IMG/VR virus record: IMGVR_UViG_3300008217_000040
Location: 1 to 31,595 of that record
Source of the DNA: a virus
Lineage: Duplodnaviria > Caudoviricetes
Direction: 5' to 3' (one strand)
DNA length: 31,595 nt
The translations under genes were made by a program, and so were the position numbers. Positions 8,709 to 27,033 of the stretch are shown one piece after another. The notes under the pieces were generated by a model. The model was not told the DNA's origin. It ran no database searches and was given only the letters and a program-made list of their open reading frames with translations. Position 1 is the stretch's first letter, and each line of letters opens with the position of its first letter.

Positions 8709-9168
8709 GGAGACTGGCACTCGATGCCTACATAAGAGGCATCGAGTAGGTGTTGACCGACTTGGGCAGGCTGTTGTCCTCGATCAACACGCGATTGACA
8801 GGCTGTATCTTTTGAAACAACTGTCGGCACAGCAGCACAACGTAGCAAACCAGTATTTGGGATTGATTTCGAAATCGGGTGCTTTTGGCGGAAGTGTTTC
8901 TTGGGAAAGAATATTTACTGATCATAATTCTTCTCCGAAACCGTTCCACAGGTCCGTTGTATTACTAAAGGTTCAAAGATTAATTTCCCAAGAATGCGGG
9001 AATGAGGATGAGAAGATTTTCTGGGCATTGATGGTGGGGAATCCCATAGAGATCAGGGATGGAGTCGTAAATGTCGCCCAAAGATGCTGCGACACCTTGA
9101 TTAATTTTTGGGGTCTTGGGGAATCACCTTCTGAAGGCTTTTTGCAAGCTCTACCAGACCATACTTAG
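8683..9168 (+). CDS. Hypothetical protein
   Basis: ORF overlapping the helicase 3' end; start uncertain (8635 or 8683). Confidence 0.65.
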   Translation: MKTSTGPCRETGTRCLHKRHRVGVDRLGQAVVLDQHAIDRLYLLKQLSAQQHNVANQYLGLISKSGAFGGSVSWERIFTDHNSSPKPFHRSVVLLKVQRLISQECGNEDEKIFWALMVGNPIEIRDGVVNVAQRCCDTLINFWGLGESPSEGFLQALPDHT

Positions 9169-9370
9169 TCTCTTTCTTGTTGGGGTAAACGGTTTTCCTC
9201 CTGCTTAATTCTCCAGCCAGTATTGGATTCTTCTTCGCGGCAGAATGAATCAGGTGGATGATTTGTTTATTCACTGATCGATCTTCATGTTCAGCGAGTG
9301 CCTTTGCCAACAGCAGCGTTTCCTCGCTACATCTAATGAAGATTGTTTTTTCGTTTTTCATTGGATACAA
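9101..9370 (-). CDS. Arc-like ribbon-helix-helix DNA-binding protein
   Basis: IFIRCSEET...AKALAEHEDRSVNKQIIHLI matches the Arc/RHH pattern. Confidence 0.75.
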   Translation of the reverse strand: MYPMKNEKTIFIRCSEETLLLAKALAEHEDRSVNKQIIHLIHSAAKKNPILAGELSRRKTVYPNKKETKYGLVELAKSLQKVIPQDPKN

Positions 9371-10014: not shown

Positions 10015-10069
10015 GAGGAAAGACACACGATCCGAGGAAAGGCACACGATCCGAGGAAAGGCACACGAT
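10015..10069. repeat. 3 x 19-nt tandem repeat GAGGAAAGRCACACGATCC
   Basis: Units at 10015, 10034, 10053 (last one 17 nt). Confidence 0.9.
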
Positions 10070-10082
10070 TGGAGGCGCGGCT

Positions 10083-10122: not shown

Positions 10123-10330
10123 CCCTAAGTCTTTGAAATTCAAGAAGTTTCTGGTCAAAACGAAATTTTACCAGTAAATATTTTGTTAACTACGCTCGCG
10201 GTTGCCAGCTTCTCTCGGCTCTTCCGTATAAGCTTTTGAATATTAAGAAGTTTATGCAGTTCAAAAATAAACGCCTGAGCTTCCACAGTCGGGATCACCA
10301 GAACATAAAAAAATAAGCGACAAGGAAAAG

Positions 10331-10369
10331 ATAAAAAAGTTTATGCCGGCATAAAAAAGTTTATGCCGG
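10331..10369. repeat. 2 x 20-nt tandem repeat ATAAAAAAGTTTATGCCGG(C)
   Basis: Direct read of the sequence. Confidence 0.85.
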
Positions 10370-10546
10370 AGAACTTTTTCAAAAATATTTTTTTCACCTA
10401 ACTATTCAAAACTTAACAGGGGGGGGAGACATTTCTCCCTAACCGCCCACCTTTTTAAAAGTCTCCCCAAGAAAGTTATCTTTTGAAAGGTTTATGGACT
10501 GGTAAATATTTATTTACCTGAAGTAAGCAGGTACGTTTTTTCAGGC

Positions 10547-10582
10547 AAAAAAAAAGGGCAGTAGCATTTCTGCTACTGCCCT
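10547..10582 (-). terminator. Strong intrinsic terminator ending the hammerhead operon
   Basis: GGGCAGUAGCA-GAAA-UGCUACUGCCC (11 bp) followed by U9. Confidence 0.9.
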
Positions 10583-10744: not shown

Positions 10745-11311
10745 CTAACCGCCAACGCTCGGTTTCAAGATACGAAAATCAGTAACCGCGTATCCCCATC
10801 TGCTGCTGAGAACTTTACCGCTATGCTCTTTGCACTTAGCGTCCCAAATCCACTGAGGGATGGTTCCGTCCTTCTCATCATAGATTTTCTTTCCAGCACG
10901 AGTCACGAGAGGAAAGAAGAGACGAACCTTTTTCTTGAGCGACCCTGATCGTCCGTTCTGCAGCGGAACACTGTCGGACAGAGTCCAATCGAATGCAACT
11001 GATCTTTCACCTATCCAGTCTGGATCGGTTCCGACAAAGATGCGCATATCCTGTTTCGCCTTCCAAGCTTTCTTTTCTGCCTCAAGCTCATTCTTTCTTT
11101 CGTCAGTGCAATCACTGGCAAAGTCAAGATTTTTAAGACCTATGAAAACAGGACTCGTTTCGCCCTCAGCAAAAGCAACCGCAAAGAATCCGAACTTCCC
11201 ATCCTTGATCGAGCGCACTTCAACTTCTTTGCCCTTCTCAATTTTGGATTTGATTCGGTCAGTAGATACGACTGCATTGAATGGGCAGCTTTGAGATTTT
11301 TCAACTGACAT
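10745..11311 (-). CDS. Hypothetical protein (188 aa)
   Basis: GGAGGUGA SD, coupled to upstream gene. Confidence 0.8.
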   Translation of the reverse strand: MSVEKSQSCPFNAVVSTDRIKSKIEKGKEVEVRSIKDGKFGFFAVAFAEGETSPVFIGLKNLDFASDCTDERKNELEAEKKAWKAKQDMRIFVGTDPDWIGERSVAFDWTLSDSVPLQNGRSGSLKKKVRLFFPLVTRAGKKIYDEKDGTIPQWIWDAKCKEHSGKVLSSRWGYAVTDFRILKPSVGG

Positions 11312-11573
11312 TTTTCACCTCCCTTTCCTTAGATTTTAATAGTTCAATTCTATCTCTTAGTAATTTAATCTCACGTTGATAGGCTTTCTTCTTTTCTTCG
11401 ATAGCGTTCAGTTTTTCAATAACATTATCAGCACTAGCAGTGCCGAGTTCCAAAAGATGGCCTATTATTTCCTCAACTGCGCCTACATCATCAAAATCAT
11501 AGAGTAGGTTATGGTTCGCCATTTTTAAGAAAGTCTCATCTACTAGCGCATCTATTTTTAACAATTCATCCAT
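11301..11573 (-). CDS. Hypothetical coiled-coil protein
   Basis: GGAGGUGA SD. Confidence 0.75.
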   Translation of the reverse strand: MDELLKIDALVDETFLKMANHNLLYDFDDVGAVEEIIGHLLELGTASADNVIEKLNAIEEKKKAYQREIKLLRDRIELLKSKEREVKNVS

Positions 11574-11715
11574 TTTTCACCTCCCTTTCCTTTAACGAAA
11601 GATCATCTTTCATTTTCTTTCGAGTACCCTTGGACGCTGCACGTTTTAATTTCCTCGTGCCTAATCGTCCGTAAGTACCAGAAATACGCCGGCCTAACTT
11701 TTTTTCACTACTCAT
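11566..11715 (-). CDS. Small basic protein (49 aa, MSSEKKLGRRISGTYGRLGTRKLKRAASKGTRKK...)
   Basis: Below ORF-track cutoff; GGAGGUGA SD; overlaps the next start. Confidence 0.7.
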   Translation of the reverse strand: MSSEKKLGRRISGTYGRLGTRKLKRAASKGTRKKMKDDLSLKEREVKNG

Positions 11716-11769: not shown

Positions 11770-11823
11770 CCCTGTTTCGTCCTTTTGGACTCATTCAGCC
11801 AGACTTTCAGTCTGAGACAGTGG
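11770..11823 (-). ncRNA. Hammerhead ribozyme HH6, type III, core variant CUGAAUGA
   Basis: CUGUC^UCAGAC-UGAAA-GUCUGG CUGAAUGA GUCC-AAAA-GGAC GAAACAG; predicted cut 11816/11815. Confidence 0.85.
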
Positions 11824-11959
11824 TTTTTGGAAATTCGGAAGCCCACATTTGCGCTTAGACGCGATAAAAGGGAGTGACCCTTGTCGTGATATCACCGAAA
11901 ACAGCCCCTCTCAGATCGCCTCTAATTTTGCCGCCCTCTGCAGGCCGCGCTATAAAAGG

Positions 11960-12005
11960 GATGAAAGACACCCGATGAATGACACTCGATGAAAGACACT
12001 CGATG
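11960..12005. repeat. 3 x 14-nt tandem repeat GATGAAWGACACYC
   Basis: gatgaaagacaccc gatgaatgacactc gatgaaagacactc gatg. Confidence 0.85.
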
Positions 12006-12061
12006 GCTTTCTTTCCGTGAGATTCTAGGATCAAAAAAAAACGAAATAAAAAAAACAAGAT

Positions 12062-12095
12062 GAATTGTTATTTCACAAAACGAATTGTTATTTCA
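12062..12095. repeat. 2 x GAATTGTTATTTCA, 20-nt period
   Basis: Copies at 12062 and 12082. Confidence 0.8.
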
Positions 12096-12134
12096 TCTCG
12101 GTCCAAAATAATATTTTACCAGTCAAAACTTTTG

Positions 12135-12185
12135 TCTGTTTCGATCTTTCGATCTCATCAGGTGGAACACACATTCCACGACAGA
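12135..12185 (-). ncRNA. Hammerhead ribozyme HH5, type III
   Basis: UCUGUC^GUGGAAU-GUGU-GUUCCAC CUGAUGA GAUC-GAAA-GAUC GAAACAGA; canonical core, all three stems; cut 12180/12179. Confidence 0.95.
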
Positions 12186-12238
12186 TTATCCCCGCCCAGA
12201 GGGCGCGACTTTTGTCGCGCCCTCTTTCTCTCTCTCAC

Positions 12239-13738
12239 CTACCAACGCAAGTCTATCGGATCAATGTAGACGATCTCTCCGAAGGGAAGCTCCTCAGACC
12301 AGCAACTCTCAGAAGTCACTGCCCAGATTACGGGTACGTCTGGCTCCACATCCTCATCAACTTCTCCCTCGCCGTCAGTGAAGTAGATGATCGCAACTAC
12401 GTCATCCACTTCGCCTTCGGACCAATCGTTGAACAGGTTGAACGGGGGGGTGAAGGATGTACCACCACCACCTCGCCTAACCATTTTCAAGTCCTCTTGA
12501 TCGAGGTCAAAAACGTCCCACCACTCGCCGTCACTGTTTTTCTTAACGCTGGTATCGCAGTAGCAGATTCTGACCCGCTCAATCCCGCATTCCTCCAGAA
12601 GAATCTGAAGCTCTGCAGAAAAGACATCTAGCTCACGCTGTGAAACAGAACCTGACGTATCAACCATCACCGCAACTTCGCCGCCATTAGGCGATTTAAG
12701 CCGCGATGGAAGATAAGTCCCAGACCATGCAAATCGGCGGTTTGGCCGCGACCAAGTCGTATCGTCCGAAAGTGAATCCATGAGTTTATCCTTCATCAAT
12801 TCCTTCCAGTTGATTTCGCCTTGGTGCTTCGGGTTATCCGCTGCCGCTGTGGTCCAATTGCCAGTGTCACTTCCAGCTGGCAAGGTTGCTTCGAGTTTTT
12901 CCGCAAGGGTTTTAGCCCGTTGGAATTCACCTCGAAGCTCTTCCATCTCGTTGCTATCAAGCTTGGTCCCATCATCATGCCTTGGCGCAACAACACCTCC
13001 AGCCAGCTCGGGCAAATCAGAATATTTATCAGTCTGATTTTCTTTGCCATCGCCTTCGCCTTCGGAACCTGAGTCGGAGTCTGAATCTTCTTCATCTGCG
13101 CATGGATCACAGCGACCCCAGTTTCCACCGTTGTCGATTTCAGTCCCGCAGTTATTGCAAGTTTCTTCGGACTCTTCGCCTTCGCCTTCGCCTTCGGATT
13201 CGCCTTCGGACTCTTCGCCTTCGGAGCCGTCTTCGCCGTCTTCTGAACGGGTCCACATGGTCTCTTCTTCGCCGTCATCGTCCTTAGTTAATTCCTCGAC
13301 AATTTCCTTAAGCTTCTCAGGGTTGTTGTCCAGATCGCGGCATATAGCTTCGACCGCCCATCCCCGATACTCAGGCAGCAACAGACCGCCCTTAGGCATT
13401 GTCAAGCCGCATTCATAAACGAGAAAAGAATTGATCGAAAGGTCTGCAGCTATATTAAAGAGCTTCAGATTCCACGATCCAATTCGGAGCGGATGTTCAA
13501 AGTAATCATGTCCAACTTCATGCGTCACAACAAAATCCAATTCATCCTCAGTCCGACTGAGAACGTATTCTGGATTATAGAAAAAGTGAATCATGTCGGT
13601 TGCACAAGTGCCACTCTCTAACATCACAGGTTTGAGGTTCAATAATATCTTCGACAAGCTCATGTGATCGCGCATGACGCGAAGGTTAGAGCGTTTCAAA
13701 GCTATCATTGCTTGCTCATTCATCGTTTCAATATTCAT
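12239..13738 (-). CDS. Metallopeptidase-VWA protein (DUF2201-type)
   Basis: CATD..FYNP, HEVGH (HExxH), NIAADLSIN, acidic linker, W.RPNRR, MIDAS DTSGS, GGGGTSF, YFTDG. Confidence 0.9.
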   Translation of the reverse strand: MNIETMNEQAMIALKRSNLRVMRDHMSLSKILLNLKPVMLESGTCATDMIHFFYNPEYVLSRTEDELDFVVTHEVGHDYFEHPLRIGSWNLKLFNIAADLSINSFLVYECGLTMPKGGLLLPEYRGWAVEAICRDLDNNPEKLKEIVEELTKDDDGEEETMWTRSEDGEDGSEGEESEGESEGEGEGEESEETCNNCGTEIDNGGNWGRCDPCADEEDSDSDSGSEGEGDGKENQTDKYSDLPELAGGVVAPRHDDGTKLDSNEMEELRGEFQRAKTLAEKLEATLPAGSDTGNWTTAAADNPKHQGEINWKELMKDKLMDSLSDDTTWSRPNRRFAWSGTYLPSRLKSPNGGEVAVMVDTSGSVSQRELDVFSAELQILLEECGIERVRICYCDTSVKKNSDGEWWDVFDLDQEDLKMVRRGGGGTSFTPPFNLFNDWSEGEVDDVVAIIYFTDGEGEVDEDVEPDVPVIWAVTSESCWSEELPFGEIVYIDPIDLRW

Positions 13739-13769
13739 TGTTTCACCTCCAAGTGATATGAATATATTT

Positions 13770-13820
13770 GCTGTTTCGATCTTTCGATCTCATCAGTTGG
13801 AATACACATTCCAATACAGC
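13770..13820 (-). ncRNA. Hammerhead ribozyme HH4, type III
   Basis: GCUGUA^UUGGAAU-GUGU-AUUCCAA CUGAUGA GAUC-GAAA-GAUC GAAACAGC; paralogue of HH5 with compensatory changes; cut 13815/13814. Confidence 0.95.
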
Positions 13821-13850
13821 GGGGGGAACAAAATCGTTCCCCCCTTCACC

Positions 13851-14837
13851 TTACTTAAACGCCTTGCCCAAGAAGCTGTCTTTCAGATTGTCCACTGACT
13901 TGTCGAGACTCTCGGAGAGAGTGTCCCTTTTCGCCTTCGACTCTGCAGTGTCTTCCCTGTATGACTCCAAATCGCTTCCAATTGTTGAGAAAGTTTTCAC
14001 CAATTTCTGGTGAGCTTTCTTGATGTCTGAATTTCCACCAAGAATGTCCTCGTTAATTGTCGGCAATTTGGACAGCGTATCTCGCAAATTGTCAAAGCTT
14101 GCATCCTTGAAGAACGACTTCTGTTTATTCTTCGGATCATACTCAACCAACTTGGTAGCGAGATGGCTAACCTCGGACAGTAAGCTCTCGACAGTATCCT
14201 TCGCAGCATTTTCCACGCTTTGTCGAATACGTCTTTCAGCGTCCGCTTCGATTCGCTCGCGAAGCTCTTTGCTGAGATTGAGTCGAATGTCCACCTCACC
14301 TTCTTTCTTACCTGTTGGAACTCCTCCAACTTCAAGGTGGTAGTAGAACTTATCCTCAACCTCAGACTGCGATGGGTAGTCTTGCCGTTTCCAGAGACCT
14401 CCCAAAGCTTTCTTCGAAGCTTCAACCCTCTTCGGGTAATCCTTAATGAATTCCTCTTTTAGCGAATCAAACTCGCGTTTGGATTCTTGGAATTTATCAA
14501 GCAAGCCCTGCAATTCCTTGTTGGGACAAATGCGCCATCCGACAACCTGAGTTTTATTCGAAGTGTTTTCGGCTGGCGTATTGTCATGCCAAGGTAAGGT
14601 GACCTCAAGGTATCCCCCGTTATCGTTCCGAAAACGATTCACGATGGACCGAAAGGGCGCAGAGCATGGAGTTCCTAGCAGATGTTTGTTGCTTTGCAGA
14701 GACTTTTCATTTGCATTGAACTCTTTCGCGAGTGCTTTCCGCGCTTCCCTGTCAACCTTAACGCCCGAAAAATTCTTCGCGGTAAGCCTAACAAGAGTAG
14801 CGTTTTCAGCTAAGGTACTTTTGGTTTTCTTAACCAT
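13851..14837 (-). CDS. DUF3150-like helical protein
   Basis: L...A.LV.L....SG.K.D, K.LL, TLPW, DYP...V..KF pattern; position between AAA and VWA genes; strong SD. Confidence 0.6.
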   Translation of the reverse strand: MVKKTKSTLAENATLVRLTAKNFSGVKVDREARKALAKEFNANEKSLQSNKHLLGTPCSAPFRSIVNRFRNDNGGYLEVTLPWHDNTPAENTSNKTQVVGWRICPNKELQGLLDKFQESKREFDSLKEEFIKDYPKRVEASKKALGGLWKRQDYPSQSEVEDKFYYHLEVGGVPTGKKEGEVDIRLNLSKELRERIEADAERRIRQSVENAAKDTVESLLSEVSHLATKLVEYDPKNKQKSFFKDASFDNLRDTLSKLPTINEDILGGNSDIKKAHQKLVKTFSTIGSDLESYREDTAESKAKRDTLSESLDKSVDNLKDSFLGKAFK

Positions 14838-14895
14838 GTTTCACCTCCAAGTGATCATGTTTAACCAATTATAAATTGATGCACAAAGTGCATCC

Positions 14896-14999
14896 CCAAA
14901 CGCGCAACCTCCCGTGCGCGTTTCGCCTGCCCTCACCGAATAAATATTTACTGGTAAATAATTATTTGGAATTGGAATTCCTGCAGGTCTCATCAGTGG
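14896..14999 (-). ncRNA. Hammerhead ribozyme HH3, type I, with long stem II insertion
   Basis: CCA CUGAUGA G(A)CCUGC..insert..GCAGGC GAAA CGCGCA-CGGGAGGU-UGCGCG UU^UGG; 3-bp stem I, GUU site, begins 2 nt after the AAA stop; cut 14899/14898. Confidence 0.75.
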
Positions 15000-15001
15000 T
15001 T

Positions 15002-16108
15002 TTAAATTTCAAAAGCCTGATTGGCGATTTTGAAATCGGAATAAATAGAAGTCTCAGCAAGGTCAGGACGCTGACCAATTACCTGACGCATGAAGAAGAA
15101 CGCAAACTCATCACTTGGCATCCTTTGAATGTACGCGAGTGCGTTTTCAAAGTAGCCAGTCACTTCGCCTGCTTCGGCTTCTTTCATTGTGTGGACCAAC
15201 GCTATGCAAGTGGCGTAGTGCATTTTGTTGTCGTCAGGAATTTGGACGTTCCCGCCGTCCTTCATAATCTCCGACAGATTGGGAATGTCGTTTTGAAGCT
15301 TAACGAATGTTGCAAAATCAATCGCCGCTGCATCACCAATAGATTGTGACGTAGTGCGCTGCAAGTCGTCCTCGTTCTTAACAACTTCTGGTGCGACAAT
15401 TAATATGTCGCTAAGGCGCACCCAACTTCTTGAACTCGGTTGCTGTCCCGCAATCTTCGGATCGAAGACGTTCAAGTTTTCGGGTTGGTAAGATATGTAA
15501 CCCGTAATTAACGGGGAAACATAATTCTTCGCTGCCCAGATCAACCATTCCTTTGTGCTGGCTTCGAACTCAATAAGCTGAACCCTACTGACCACATGGG
15601 TTGGAACCTTGTTGCTACCAGCACGGTCTGTACTCCGATTTCCAGCACACACTATTCGCCAACCTGACGGGAAAATATAGGACCCAAGCCTACGCTCATG
15701 GAGCAATTGTCCAATGATGCTTTGCAACGAAGCATGAGCTTGTGCAAATTCATCCAAGAACAAAACGCCTTCACCAGACTGTGGAAGATTCTCAAGAAAT
15801 GCTCGTTGCTGAATTCCAATATCTGGGTTGTCCTTGCGGAACATGATGTGCGGCAAGCCGCCAAAATCTACCGCTTCATACAAGCCCAGTCGCACCGACA
15901 CATAGCCGAATGAACCCTTTGGGGGTGCAACAGCTAGCGGGAGGGATTCCTTGTCAGTAACGAGCTTCCGATCACCGCGAAGTATGTTCACACACACATC
16001 TACGATGGCCGACTTCCCGATACCAACTTGTCCCTCCAGATACGGCACATGGTTGGCCTTCAAACAATTGAGAATATCTTGCACTGCTTTTGTTGGATTT
16101 GTTTTCAC
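15002..16108 (-). CDS. MoxR-like AAA+ ATPase (AAA_5 type)
   Basis: Walker A GQVGIGKS, Walker B LFLDE, AGNR..DRAG, SRSW; GTG start at 16108 behind UUGGAGGU. Confidence 0.9.
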   Translation of the reverse strand: MKTNPTKAVQDILNCLKANHVPYLEGQVGIGKSAIVDVCVNILRGDRKLVTDKESLPLAVAPPKGSFGYVSVRLGLYEAVDFGGLPHIMFRKDNPDIGIQQRAFLENLPQSGEGVLFLDEFAQAHASLQSIIGQLLHERRLGSYIFPSGWRIVCAGNRSTDRAGSNKVPTHVVSRVQLIEFEASTKEWLIWAAKNYVSPLITGYISYQPENLNVFDPKIAGQQPSSRSWVRLSDILIVAPEVVKNEDDLQRTTSQSIGDAAAIDFATFVKLQNDIPNLSEIMKDGGNVQIPDDNKMHYATCIALVHTMKEAEAGEVTGYFENALAYIQRMPSDEFAFFFMRQVIGQRPDLAETSIYSDFKIANQAFEI

Positions 16109-16139
16109 GATTACCTCCAAGTAAATGAAATCAAAAGCT

Positions 16140-16166
16140 AAAAAAACGTAACCCAAAATGGGTTAC
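16140..16166 (-). terminator. Intrinsic terminator-like hairpin between HH2 and the AAA gene
   Basis: GUAACCCA-UUU-UGGGUUAC-G-U7. Confidence 0.6.
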
Positions 16167-16263
16167 ACCAAGACGATTCAACCTTGAACAGGAAAAACTT
16201 GTTATACAAAACAAGTTTCATTACGAATCGTTTCGCTAGAGTTTCGCTAGCTCTTCAGTTGGT
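16167..16263 (-). ncRNA. Hammerhead ribozyme HH2, type I, with extended stem III
   Basis: ACCAA CUGAAGA GCUAG-CGAAACU-CUAGC GAAA CGAUUC..(9-bp inner hairpin)..GAAUCG UC^UUGGU; cut 16172/16171. Confidence 0.9.
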
Positions 16264-16270
16264 TTACAAA

Positions 16271-16504
16271 TTATGCAAAACGATTTTTGAGAAGTTTTGC
16301 CACCGCTACCCAATGTCTGGGTTCCGCGAGTGAATCAATTTCATCGTGAATCGAAATTGCACTTACAGACTCCACCAACGACATCCACTTACCTTTATTT
16401 TTAGCCTGCCGCTCAGCGCGAATGCGACACTGTTTCTTGTGTGCGCGAATCGTCTTTCGGTAGTTGGTTTGTCGGTACTTTTCTTTCAATGCTTTAGCAG
16501 TCAT
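16271..16504 (-). CDS. Small basic hypothetical protein, first gene of the operon
   Basis: UUGGAGGUGAA SD before ATG 16504. Confidence 0.75.
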   Translation of the reverse strand: MTAKALKEKYRQTNYRKTIRAHKKQCRIRAERQAKNKGKWMSLVESVSAISIHDEIDSLAEPRHWVAVAKLLKNRFA

Positions 16505-16512
16505 TTTATTCA

Positions 16513-16620
16513 CCTCCAAGTGAATTGGTTTCGATTTAAAACAAAATATTTACTAGTCAATATTTTGTTCTGGCTATCATCTTCAGGAGCTAGTCGCCAC
16601 ACTAGCTCGACCCTTGGAGG
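16513..16620 (-). ncRNA. Hammerhead ribozyme HH1, type III, stem III extension pairs with the downstream SD
   Basis: CCUCCAAG GGUC^GAGCUAGU-GUGGCG-ACUAGCUC CUGAAGA(U) GAU..12-bp helix..AUC GAAA CC AAUUCA CUUGGAGG; cut 16609/16608. Confidence 0.8.
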
Positions 16621-16742
16621 AAGGTCCCAACGTAGTCCGATTGTCTTCGCCGCTATTTTTATTCTGGCCTGATGAATTCAGATTCGACAGCGTTGGGAAT
16701 TTCTTGTTGACGTTGCATCAAAAAACTTATCCCGTCCTGCTT

Positions 16743-16961
16743 TCCCCGAGGGTACTCCTAGCAAGACTAACCGCCTGCACTGAACCCAACCAAAAGACAA
16801 GGCTTCCTTGTTGGATTTTCTGGCGGTCTTGGTTCACTTGGTGAACCTCTCCGCTCTACCCGCTACCTCTTAACTCCTGATGGAGTTCCAGCGATTTGAC
16901 TTGCGGACATTTCGAACCGTGTCATCGCGACAGTGTTGAAACAACCGCAGGCCCTCGGGGA
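16743..16961 (-). ncRNA. Candidate large multi-stem structured RNA (operon leader)
   Basis: 10-bp closing helix UCCCCGAGGG/CCCUCGGGGA enclosing four sub-domains; no convincing ORF; strand inferred from the operon. Confidence 0.55.
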
Positions 16962-17150
16962 CTGGTTTCATGATATGAGGGTTGATCCAATCAAACTTGC
17001 TGCATATCACTTCTACTAAGAATTTTAGATCAGTCAAACATCATTCGCAACATCAACTGCACACGATAGCTAAGTGCAAGCGTAGCTTTGGTTAGTGGCA
17101 CGAGATAATATTTTACTGAGCCAAAAACAATCTCAGGTTGCGCAGGAATT

Positions 17151-26071: not shown

Positions 26072-26127
26072 CCCTTTTCCTGACTGTCACATCGTGTGGC
26101 AGACACTAGCCGAGACAGGAGAAAGAA

Positions 26128-27033
26128 ATGGCTAATACAACTTTCACAGGAGCAGTACGCTCCGAAAATGGTTTTAAAACCATTGATATCAATTCAACGA
26201 CAGGGGCCGTTACTGAAGGTTTTGTAATAAACAAAGACGGTAATGTCTATACTGATGATGGTGGACATATTCAGTATGCAGCAGCAACAGGATATGGGCC
26301 TGCTGACCTTATAGTCGGTAAAGGGGGGAGCCAGTACGGGACAGTTGATCCCTACACAGAAAGTTCCTCGCAACTCTTCCCTCTGGGAAGCACTCTGGTT
26401 TACGGTAATAATGTTTATCGTTATGTTGAAATAGGCGGAACAGCAGTAACTGCTGGTAAACTTCTTCAACACGCAGCAGTAGTTGCTCATCACTCTAATA
26501 TGACAGCAACAGCAGCAGTAGCAGCAGGTGAAACTGTAATATCTGTTGAAACTGGGGGTACTGACTTAACAGCTAACCAATATGCAGATGGCTATCTTTG
26601 GGTAAATGATGTGAATGGTGAAGGACAATGCCTTAGAGTAAAATCCAATCCAGCACACGATCATTCAGAGGACCCTTCTGTTGAGATTACTTGCTACGAT
26701 GATTTAGCGACTGCACTAACAACTAGCTCACAACTATCTCTAATAGAGAACCCAAATACCAACCTAATTGTTGCACCAGCAACAGAAACAGGTGCGTTGA
26801 TGGGAGCTACTGTCGTTGATATGACAGCAGACTATTATGGTTGGGCAGTTATAAAAGGACCAGCAGCACTTCTCACAGTAGGCACTTTGGTTGTAGGTAA
26901 TGCAGCAGTTCGCTCTGGCGGTACAGCAGGCGGTGTTGCACCAGCAACTGACAACGTACTACAAGAAGTTGGTGATGTAATGGCTGTATCAGCAGATACC
27001 GAGTATTCATTGATTAATATGAATTTAGGTTAG
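26128..27033 (+). CDS. Virion structural protein (head fibre/decoration-like)
   Basis: MANTTF.G.VRSENGF N-terminus, Ala/Gly/Thr-rich, follows the capsid gene. Confidence 0.7.
   Translation: MANTTFTGAVRSENGFKTIDINSTTGAVTEGFVINKDGNVYTDDGGHIQYAAATGYGPADLIVGKGGSQYGTVDPYTESSSQLFPLGSTLVYGNNVYRYVEIGGTAVTAGKLLQHAAVVAHHSNMTATAAVAAGETVISVETGGTDLTANQYADGYLWVNDVNGEGQCLRVKSNPAHDHSEDPSVEITCYDDLATALTTSSQLSLIENPNTNLIVAPATETGALMGATVVDMTADYYGWAVIKGPAALLTVGTLVVGNAAVRSGGTAGGVAPATDNVLQEVGDVMAVSADTEYSLINMNLG

Follow-up and report, generated by a model that had tools for sequence, protein, structure and literature searches.

Does the phage operon examined here process its own transcript, and does the first ribozyme in it do more than cut? 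The locus lies in IMG/VR virus record IMGVR_UViG_3300008217_000040 (Duplodnaviria; Caudoviricetes), a 31.6-kb phage contig; we analyzed the entire assembly, positions 1 to 31,595, and refer to this whole stretch of 31,595 nucleotides (nt) as the window. Terminase, capsid and adaptor genes are on the plus strand of the contig, which also carries a primase-helicase gene. The operon is on the minus strand, divergent from the terminase small-subunit gene (start 17151, plus strand), and contains six hammerhead ribozyme motifs, HH1 to HH6 in transcript order (Table 1). On balance we favor a reading in which the hammerheads likely cut an early transcript to gene-sized RNAs. In the same reading HH1, upstream of the first gene, has two conserved states and, by prediction, cuts only once it has paired with the Shine-Dalgarno sequence (SD) of that gene, freeing the leader.

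An earlier note on this DNA had claimed six hammerhead folds, all intergenic and all on the minus strand. Inspection of the sequence and a descriptor search placed all six at the coordinates and cleavage positions claimed, although their quality is uneven. The CUGANGA and GAAA core is canonical in HH1–HH5; in HH6, A6 is followed by one inserted base, a variant (A6a) reported to have low activity (PMC3088659). Three stems and an NUH site are present in strict form in HH2, HH4, HH5 and HH6, whereas HH3 attains them with a 3-bp stem I, and HH1 with a 3-bp stem III plus an extension formed with the SD. The three pair-preserving changes described between the stems of HH4 and HH5 are present; HH5 is a 92% copy of HH4, with neither an SD nor a gene downstream.

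We compared the window with 200 dinucleotide shuffles. A strict descriptor, requiring at least 4 bp in stems I and III, detected HH2, HH4, HH5 and HH6 and nothing else, with a mean of 0.05 and a maximum of 1 match in the shuffles. Relaxing the descriptor added HH3 (mean 0.145, maximum 2 in the shuffles); HH1 was missed by both versions. The stricter search replaced a loose descriptor that yielded 1–6 chance matches per shuffle. That looser first scan had matched all six motifs, but because it also matched 7 further sites in the window and a mean of 5.6 per shuffle, it provides no support for HH1 or HH3. The Rfam search proposed in the earlier note matched HH6 alone across the whole window (Hammerhead_3, 33.7 bits, E = 0.001) and, in a local scan, HH1 (Hammerhead_II, 23.8 bits, E = 0.021), both below their gathering scores (48.5 and 37, respectively). 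None of 9 family loci scanned reached the Rfam gathering score for hammerheads. The Rfam models were built on other lineages, and the missed scores concern only the Rfam family label. A family covariance model, for which 46 type III motifs were taken from relatives outside the window's own cluster, scored HH4 at 69.3, HH5 at 66.8 and HH6 at 36.5 bits, and did not detect HH1.

Two of the motifs vary or deviate in other ways. Among near-identical copies (L005, L007 and L003, compared with the window), HH2 shows four substitutions, all of them within loop II or the insert of stem III; the other five motifs are invariant among these sequences. Stem I of HH3 has 3 bp, compared with 5 bp in the other 35 of 36 type I matches, its fold penalty is 5.2 kcal/mol as against a family 90th percentile of 4.2, and it has no informative homologue. 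HH3 may be weak or decaying.

We next turned to related loci. Queries with the ATPase and the DUF3150-like protein gave 147 loci from viral and metagenome collections (the metagenome part being the best 80 of 175), which form 33 clusters at 90% DUF3150 identity, the window's own included; several of the record names are marine. Hammerhead matches in the 33 clusters numbered 96 sense and 1 antisense, compared with 1–5 in shuffles, and the conservation of intergenic hammerheads at related ATPase-DUF3150 loci that the earlier note had suggested looking for is evident. Two matches inside genes were excluded from later counts, and the covariance model contributed 12 more. In the type III alignment (46 rows), 92.6% of stem cells were paired, compared with 35–46% in slid controls, and both sides change at 13/15 pairs; the type I alignment was too poor to count covariation, and no type I model was made. 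An SD lies within 100 nt downstream of 92/94 motifs. All 59 type III matches have U at position 1.7 or 1.8, a base that may serve the stem I–stem II tertiary contact.

The motifs also keep their places. They occupy the slot before the ATPase gene in 18/27 clusters, the ATPase/DUF3150 junction in 27/32, and the position after DUF2201 in 19/26; nine hammerheads were detected in one locus, L049. These occupancies are minima: additional gaps held core variants on inspection by eye, and the HH1 class described below escapes both descriptor and model. The five clusters with no motif at the ATPase/DUF3150 junction have a gap of 0–47 nt there. This junction carries a type III motif in relatives and a type I motif in the window, indicating that position is kept while topology changes. 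By contrast, DUF3150 and DUF2201 are split by a motif in just 7/32 clusters, and HH5 and HH6 flank no gene, so that the gene-by-gene layout, which holds for this phage, does not extend to the family. Concerted evolution of the motifs within genomes was not seen: type III similarity was 0.50 within and 0.51 between genomes, and the nearest neighbor was in the same genome for 5/51. Support for the proposal of protein-free processing into gene-sized units comes, at the level of sequence, from how widely the motifs are conserved, from their strand bias and covariation, and from their constant placement ahead of an SD; we consider it very probable that the array cuts the transcript. The family thereby offers a position-by-position map with internal controls, namely junctions with and without motifs.

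Three further observations concern the hammerheads and their slots. The cleavage base goes with the identity of the first stem II pair: a U10.1-U11.1 mismatch accompanies A17 in 39/42 cases and a U insertion after A9 accompanies C17 in 13/13, while motifs with a canonical first pair have C (22), A (15) or U (1); common ancestry is a possible cause. In two clusters (15/154 loci) the slot before the ATPase gene holds a structured element that is not a hammerhead (L032 6671–6760; L092 1647–1740). A widened pattern of it matched about 360 viral stretches. The element itself matched no Rfam family above noise, and it is a candidate alternative processing element. Finally, two clusters that lack hammerheads (L035 and L062) show a long hairpin with imperfect pairing ahead of the ATPase gene, possibly a site cut by a protein.

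HH1 proved to be a different kind of motif. The span 16513–16620 claimed for it is exactly that of HH1 with its extended stem III; the earlier note overlooked the two-state design of the element and the identity of this extension with the SD of the following gene. In the constrained fold, the 3-bp stem III is lengthened by pairing of 16620–16613 with 16520–16513, the SD of the 77-aa gene. The same anti-SD bases double as the loop of a hairpin, 16626–16609, that pairs the full cleavage triplet including C17 and that we call the decoy. Loop I may form a 4-bp pseudoknot (16599–16596 with 16574–16571, read by eye).

A first reading of the post-terminase region in relatives found the same design in 45 distinct sequences from 15 clusters. 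This leader class is present in 74 of the 95 loci that reach the terminase gene (19/24 clusters), 309–542 nt from the terminase start. It is the first hammerhead in 74/74, is never duplicated, and has no antisense copy. With the decoy strand left unspecified, a pattern scan matched about 130 viral stretches. A hairpin over the cleavage nucleotide, N17, with at least 5 Watson-Crick pairs occurs in 94 of 111 motifs with CUCC upstream (a set that includes some internal motifs caught by chance), compared with none of the 114 other type III motifs. The leader class mostly has a stem III of 3–4 bp, the others one of 7–8 bp. Position N16.3 matches both the decoy and N15.3 in 96/99 true-decoy sequences (U-A-U in 62, A-U-A in 33, C-G-C in the window); the remaining decoy positions show more kinds of variation. 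The decoy and ribozyme pairings exclude each other, and compensating changes preserve both. There are two scaffolds, as most leader motifs have two extra bases before G12 that are absent in the window, L014 and L050. Assignment of HH1 to the type II hammerheads (RF02276) was rejected, because the upstream strand in the leader class reads NNGAC and never GAAAC, its G pairing with C17. Sequence comparison across the family supports HH1 as a separate class, and both of its folds are probably under selection.

In computed ensembles, the ribozyme fold of the leader class lies above the decoy fold by a median of 1.3 kcal/mol, and by 8.2 kcal/mol with the SD held unpaired; the corresponding values for HH1 of the window are 2.9 and 9.8 kcal/mol. 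Computed folds and complementarity both place the SD in a duplex inside the ribozyme fold, and the rise from 1.3 to 8.2 kcal/mol predicts that ribozyme folding needs a free SD. Activation of translation by cleavage was not supported: the cost of opening the SD hardly changes, although a longer-window estimate, in which the unpaired probability rises from 0.22 to 0.55 upon cleavage, favored such activation for HH1 and HH6; the outcome depends on the folding window. Since folding is predicted to need a free SD and cleavage barely frees it, we take the ribosome to gate the ribozyme rather than the reverse.

The decoy hairpin ends exactly at the cut. The predicted 5' product is therefore a non-coding leader of 250–400 nt with a blunt 3' hairpin. 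In 17/19 clusters the decoy loop shows full complementarity to the first SD, and it does so to 68 of the 69 remaining hammerhead-led SDs in these loci. Two rarer loop registers follow the SD style of their own genome (21/21 compared with 46%, and 8/8 compared with 13%). In the window, TGGAGG was found at none of the 13 plus-strand starts inspected.

These observations suggest the following course of events. HH2, HH4 and HH5 would cut fast and HH6 and HH3 slowly, giving products of about 437, 1273, 1084, 1635, 364 and 1260 nt with a hairpin near each new end, so that each gene's RNA would be translated and decay separately. On HH1, the decoy hairpin would form first and bury the GUC triplet; an SD without a ribosome would then pair with the decoy loop, completing the short stem III and permitting cleavage; the 5' product would refold into the blunt 3' hairpin, display the anti-SD loop, and depart. 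We take the HH1 device to be regulatory, most likely a translation-sensing timer whose released RNA would dampen translation of the hammerhead-led early genes, this last step being the least supported. Gating of HH1 cleavage by SD occupancy comes close to, but falls a little short of, an even bet. Repression in trans by the released leader is doubtful, and we treat it as a lead, not a result. The full scheme, in which HH1 cuts when its SD is ribosome-free and a 250–400 nt leader with a 3' hairpin loop mimicking the 16S anti-SD silences the hammerhead-released early mRNAs in trans as an all-RNA early-to-late timer of a widespread marine phage family, is tentative and on present evidence unlikely.

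Several findings weigh against the two-state reading and the array model around it. Cleavage hardly matters for the cost of opening the SD (4.2 versus 3.8 kcal/mol; 4.3 versus 4.3 in the window), and the computed energies leave out tertiary contacts and magnesium. The tracking of SD style by the loop reduces to two clade-level events and could be explained by homogenization of SDs within genomes. A duplex test with the whole hairpin revealed no preference for own-genome SDs (own better in 4/19, 6/18 and 6/19), and with 6 nt the loop offers little hold for action in trans. The covariation of the decoy, N16.3 and N15.3 amounts to only 3 changes (at minimum 2) when mapped onto a quickly built 48-row tree of DUF3150. 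The leader class is missing from 5/24 clusters, and in L013 its core appears damaged by eye. Two extra bases precede G12 in 103 of the 111 CUCC motifs and are not found among the tested variants in the accessible part of PMC3088659; because they alter the core, many leader-class motifs may cut poorly. Within the array, HH3 is an outlier and HH5 heads no gene.

The alternative that survives best, improbable though we consider it, is that all motifs including HH1 are plain constitutive processing sites, the decoy only aiding release of the 5' product and blocking re-ligation, and the SD serving as a convenient partner for lengthening stem III. Near-equal energies of the two HH1 folds, equal SD access before and after cleavage, and a hairpin whose end falls precisely at N17, as expected for a structure at a product end, are all consistent with this view. 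However, internal motifs acquire a 7–8-bp stem III with neither SD nor decoy, the design is confined to the first motif, and the decoy loop also fits the other SDs of the locus.

We think it quite unlikely that cleavage instead destabilizes the RNAs, making the array a timer that clears early messages. Degradation follows cleavage of the glmS ribozyme (PMC6765202), and a U run follows HH2. By contrast, both new ends are flanked by hairpins more often than controls: a stable hairpin precedes 44/57 type III motifs and follows 27/35 type I motifs, compared with 10/66 coding windows. The leaders from motif to gene are A/U-rich and constant in length, with medians of 56 and 79 nt, as suits products built for translation, and RNases E, J and Y prefer 5' monophosphates (PMC7509114). 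The stabilization by 5'-OH ends put forward in the earlier note may apply to these products.

It is less probable still that each unit has its own promoter, marked by an A/T-rich palindrome (Table 1), so that no long polycistronic RNA exists and the hammerheads merely trim 5' ends. In 28 of 31 near cases the palindrome does precede the cut by 20–54 nt, and it is found in either orientation, which suits a DNA site, but two of its copies in the window are inside ribozyme loops, and sigma70-like sites in the region show no significant excess (12, compared with 8.9 in shuffles). Moreover, type I motifs begin 0–21 nt past the upstream stop in 25/29 cases, leaving no promoter space. The idea that the motifs are repeats spread with gene cassettes and serving recombination, with cleavage incidental, fits the 103 hammerhead-led open reading frames (ORFs) falling into 38 mostly single groups and the HH5 copy of HH4, but is scarcely credible given the covarying stems, the fixed core, and type III motifs no more alike within genomes than between them.

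Table 1. Features of the operon and its surroundings. Positions are those of the window; N17 is the predicted cleavage position.
Feature	Position	Strand	N17	Basis or description
Sigma70-like site	17022..17050	-		best upstream of operon; 9/12 matches; putative start of ~400-nt leader
Putative non-coding leader RNA	16609..17015	-		predicted 5' product of HH1 cleavage; ends in decoy hairpin
HH1, type III leader hammerhead	16513..16626	-	16609	sequence, two computed folds, family class
HH1 decoy strand	16626-16621	-		
HH1 anti-SD loop	16620-16615	-		
HH1 cleavage strand	16614-16609	-	16609	
HH1 core	16586-16580	-		also a U insertion
HH1 GAAA	16532-16529	-		
HH1 SD strand	16520-16513	-		
77-aa gene	16271..16504	-		unknown family; no family matches
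HH2, type I	16167..16263	-	16172	GUC cleavage triplet; 5/5/8-bp stems; downstream hairpin with U run, 16169-16145
AAA+ ATPase gene, 368 aa	15002..16108	-		PHROG 1297, E 2.6e-66
HH3, type I	14896..14999	-	14899	weak, with a bulge in stem II and 3 bp in stem I; GUU cleavage triplet; palindrome within loop II; hairpin 14894-14878 follows
DUF3150-like gene, 328 aa	13851..14837	-		Pfam E 8e-5, below cut-off
G/C hairpin (13844-13821), then HH4 (13820-13770), type III	13770..13844	-	13815	GUA site; descriptor and covariance model
DUF2201_N metallopeptidase-like and DUF2201 VWA-like gene, 499 aa	12239..13738	-		both domains pass cut-offs
G/C hairpin (12225-12198), then HH5 (12185-12135), type III	12135..12225	-	12180	GUC site; covariance model
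Non-coding spacer	11824..12134	-		sequence: palindrome 12111-12129, three 14-nt-spaced repeats 11960-12006, long hairpin ~11919-11860
HH6, type III	11770..11823	-	11816	insertion after A6; GUC site; descriptor and covariance model
Three overlapping small genes (49, 90, 188 aa)	10745..11715	-		no family matches
Terminator-like hairpin and U run (intrinsic type)	10555..10582	-		likely transcript end
A/T-rich palindrome, core TTAC(C/T)(A/G)GTAA, five copies	14943-14962, 16545-16564, 12111-12129, 10491-10510, 10163-10182	.		possible protein-binding site

The gene labels given earlier are borne out for the ATPase, by PHROG 1297, and for DUF2201_N and DUF2201, two domains above their cut-offs, whereas the DUF3150 match is weak; the DUF3150 label is carried by 18–25% of members in the atlas clusters of that gene. 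The ATPase is 28–31% identical to ATPases of cultured phages, matched no Pfam family at 0.01, and gave no relative of solved structure in a sequence search. Neither a DUF3150 gene nor a similar motif was found in cultured phages, and the one genome-collection match is a 3.6-kb contig in a metagenome bin, too thin for naming a host. Roseobacter phage CRP-7 (MK613349), which has a related ATPase, carries one type II hammerhead before its second gene (L148 570–633; 50.1 bits, above the Rfam cut-off); as a cultured phage it provides a ready system for assaying phage hammerhead cleavage.

The putative leader upstream of HH1 folds with a z-score of -2.5 in the window. Family leaders mostly lack long ORFs and are no more stable than shuffles (median z -0.19), and sigma70-like sites scoring at least 9 occur in 28/76 of them, compared with 25% in shuffles, a weak signal. 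The leaders of L105, L115–L117, L142 and L143 resemble a multi-domain non-coding RNA with short stems that covary by eye; one of its modules resembles part of the leader in the window (~16860–16810) and in L013. No Rfam match was found.

The palindrome gave 11 strand matches in the window, compared with 0.27 expected for a pattern drawn from the same copies, and 128 matches in relatives, in both orientations, compared with 5–14 in shuffles. At the ATPase/DUF3150 junction, the hammerhead is immediately preceded by a G/C-clamped hairpin whose cap is the palindrome or a variant of it. The palindrome is a possible regulator site; an Arc-like gene (weak PHROG match) lies at 9101–9370. Two sets of three short direct repeats of one family, at 11960–12006 (14-nt spacing) and 10015–10071 (19-nt spacing), are iteron-like, and a further 20-nt duplication is at 10331–10369. 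HH5 and the spacer that follows it may be a later insertion. A hairpin like the long one ahead of HH6 (11860–11925) follows the DUF2201 stop in many relatives, whether or not a hammerhead is present. A Mu-gpT-DE RNA motif (26078–26130; 62.7 bits, above cut-off) lies downstream of the capsid gene.

How does this locus compare with known systems? The early transcript of phage T7 is cut by host RNase III to gene-sized RNAs that retain 5' phosphates. The scheme proposed here likewise cuts a single early transcript to gene-sized RNAs; T7 differs in needing a host protein and in the 5' phosphates left. The earlier note knew of no ribozyme-punctuated operon of this kind, which was mistaken: Perreault et al., 2011 (PMC3088659) describe clustered, mixed-type hammerheads that flank single prophage genes or short blocks, propose single-gene mRNA processing, and report cleavage of three triple arrays in vitro and of one in E. 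coli. As in those arrays, several motifs are found here on the sense strand between genes of one phage operon, and two variants seen here, the A6a insertion and the U10.1-U11.1 mismatch, are described there. On every testable feature, as judged from sequence, our array is a member of that group. It differs in that the flanked genes there are "not constant" and the arrays triple, whereas here a fixed ATPase/DUF3150/DUF2201 module carries 5–6 motifs across 33 clusters. Taken alone, the array adds a good new case to an arrangement already in print.

What is new is HH1. In the accessible text of PMC3088659, neither the decoy nor the anti-SD loop is mentioned. Reviews (PMC6155905, PMC6765202) place prokaryotic hammerheads close together, near small non-conserved ORFs and linked to phages, and, in the portions available, call their role an open question; the hammerheads treated there come with neither a regulatory fold nor a family-level position map. 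The glmS ribozyme, like HH1, is a natural self-cleaving RNA in a 5' leader, and has a regulatory role; it differs in fold, in its metabolite cofactor, and in leading to decay. A literature search for a natural hammerhead coupled to an SD or anti-SD returned engineered devices and reviews only, and such marine sequences, or their association with these genes, may already be contained in earlier hammerhead surveys. In synthetic hammerhead aptazymes and thermozymes, cleavage driven by ligand or heat frees the SD (PMC5367253, PMC12192606). HH1 resembles the aptazymes in coupling a ribozyme fold to SD pairing within a bacterial-type 5' leader; unlike them it is natural, has no visible aptamer, sets the SD in stem III against a decoy, and shows no rise in computed SD access. 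If HH1 cleavage indeed depends on the SD and on the decoy, HH1 would be a natural hammerhead under regulation by the translation it senses, which our searches otherwise met only in engineered switches.

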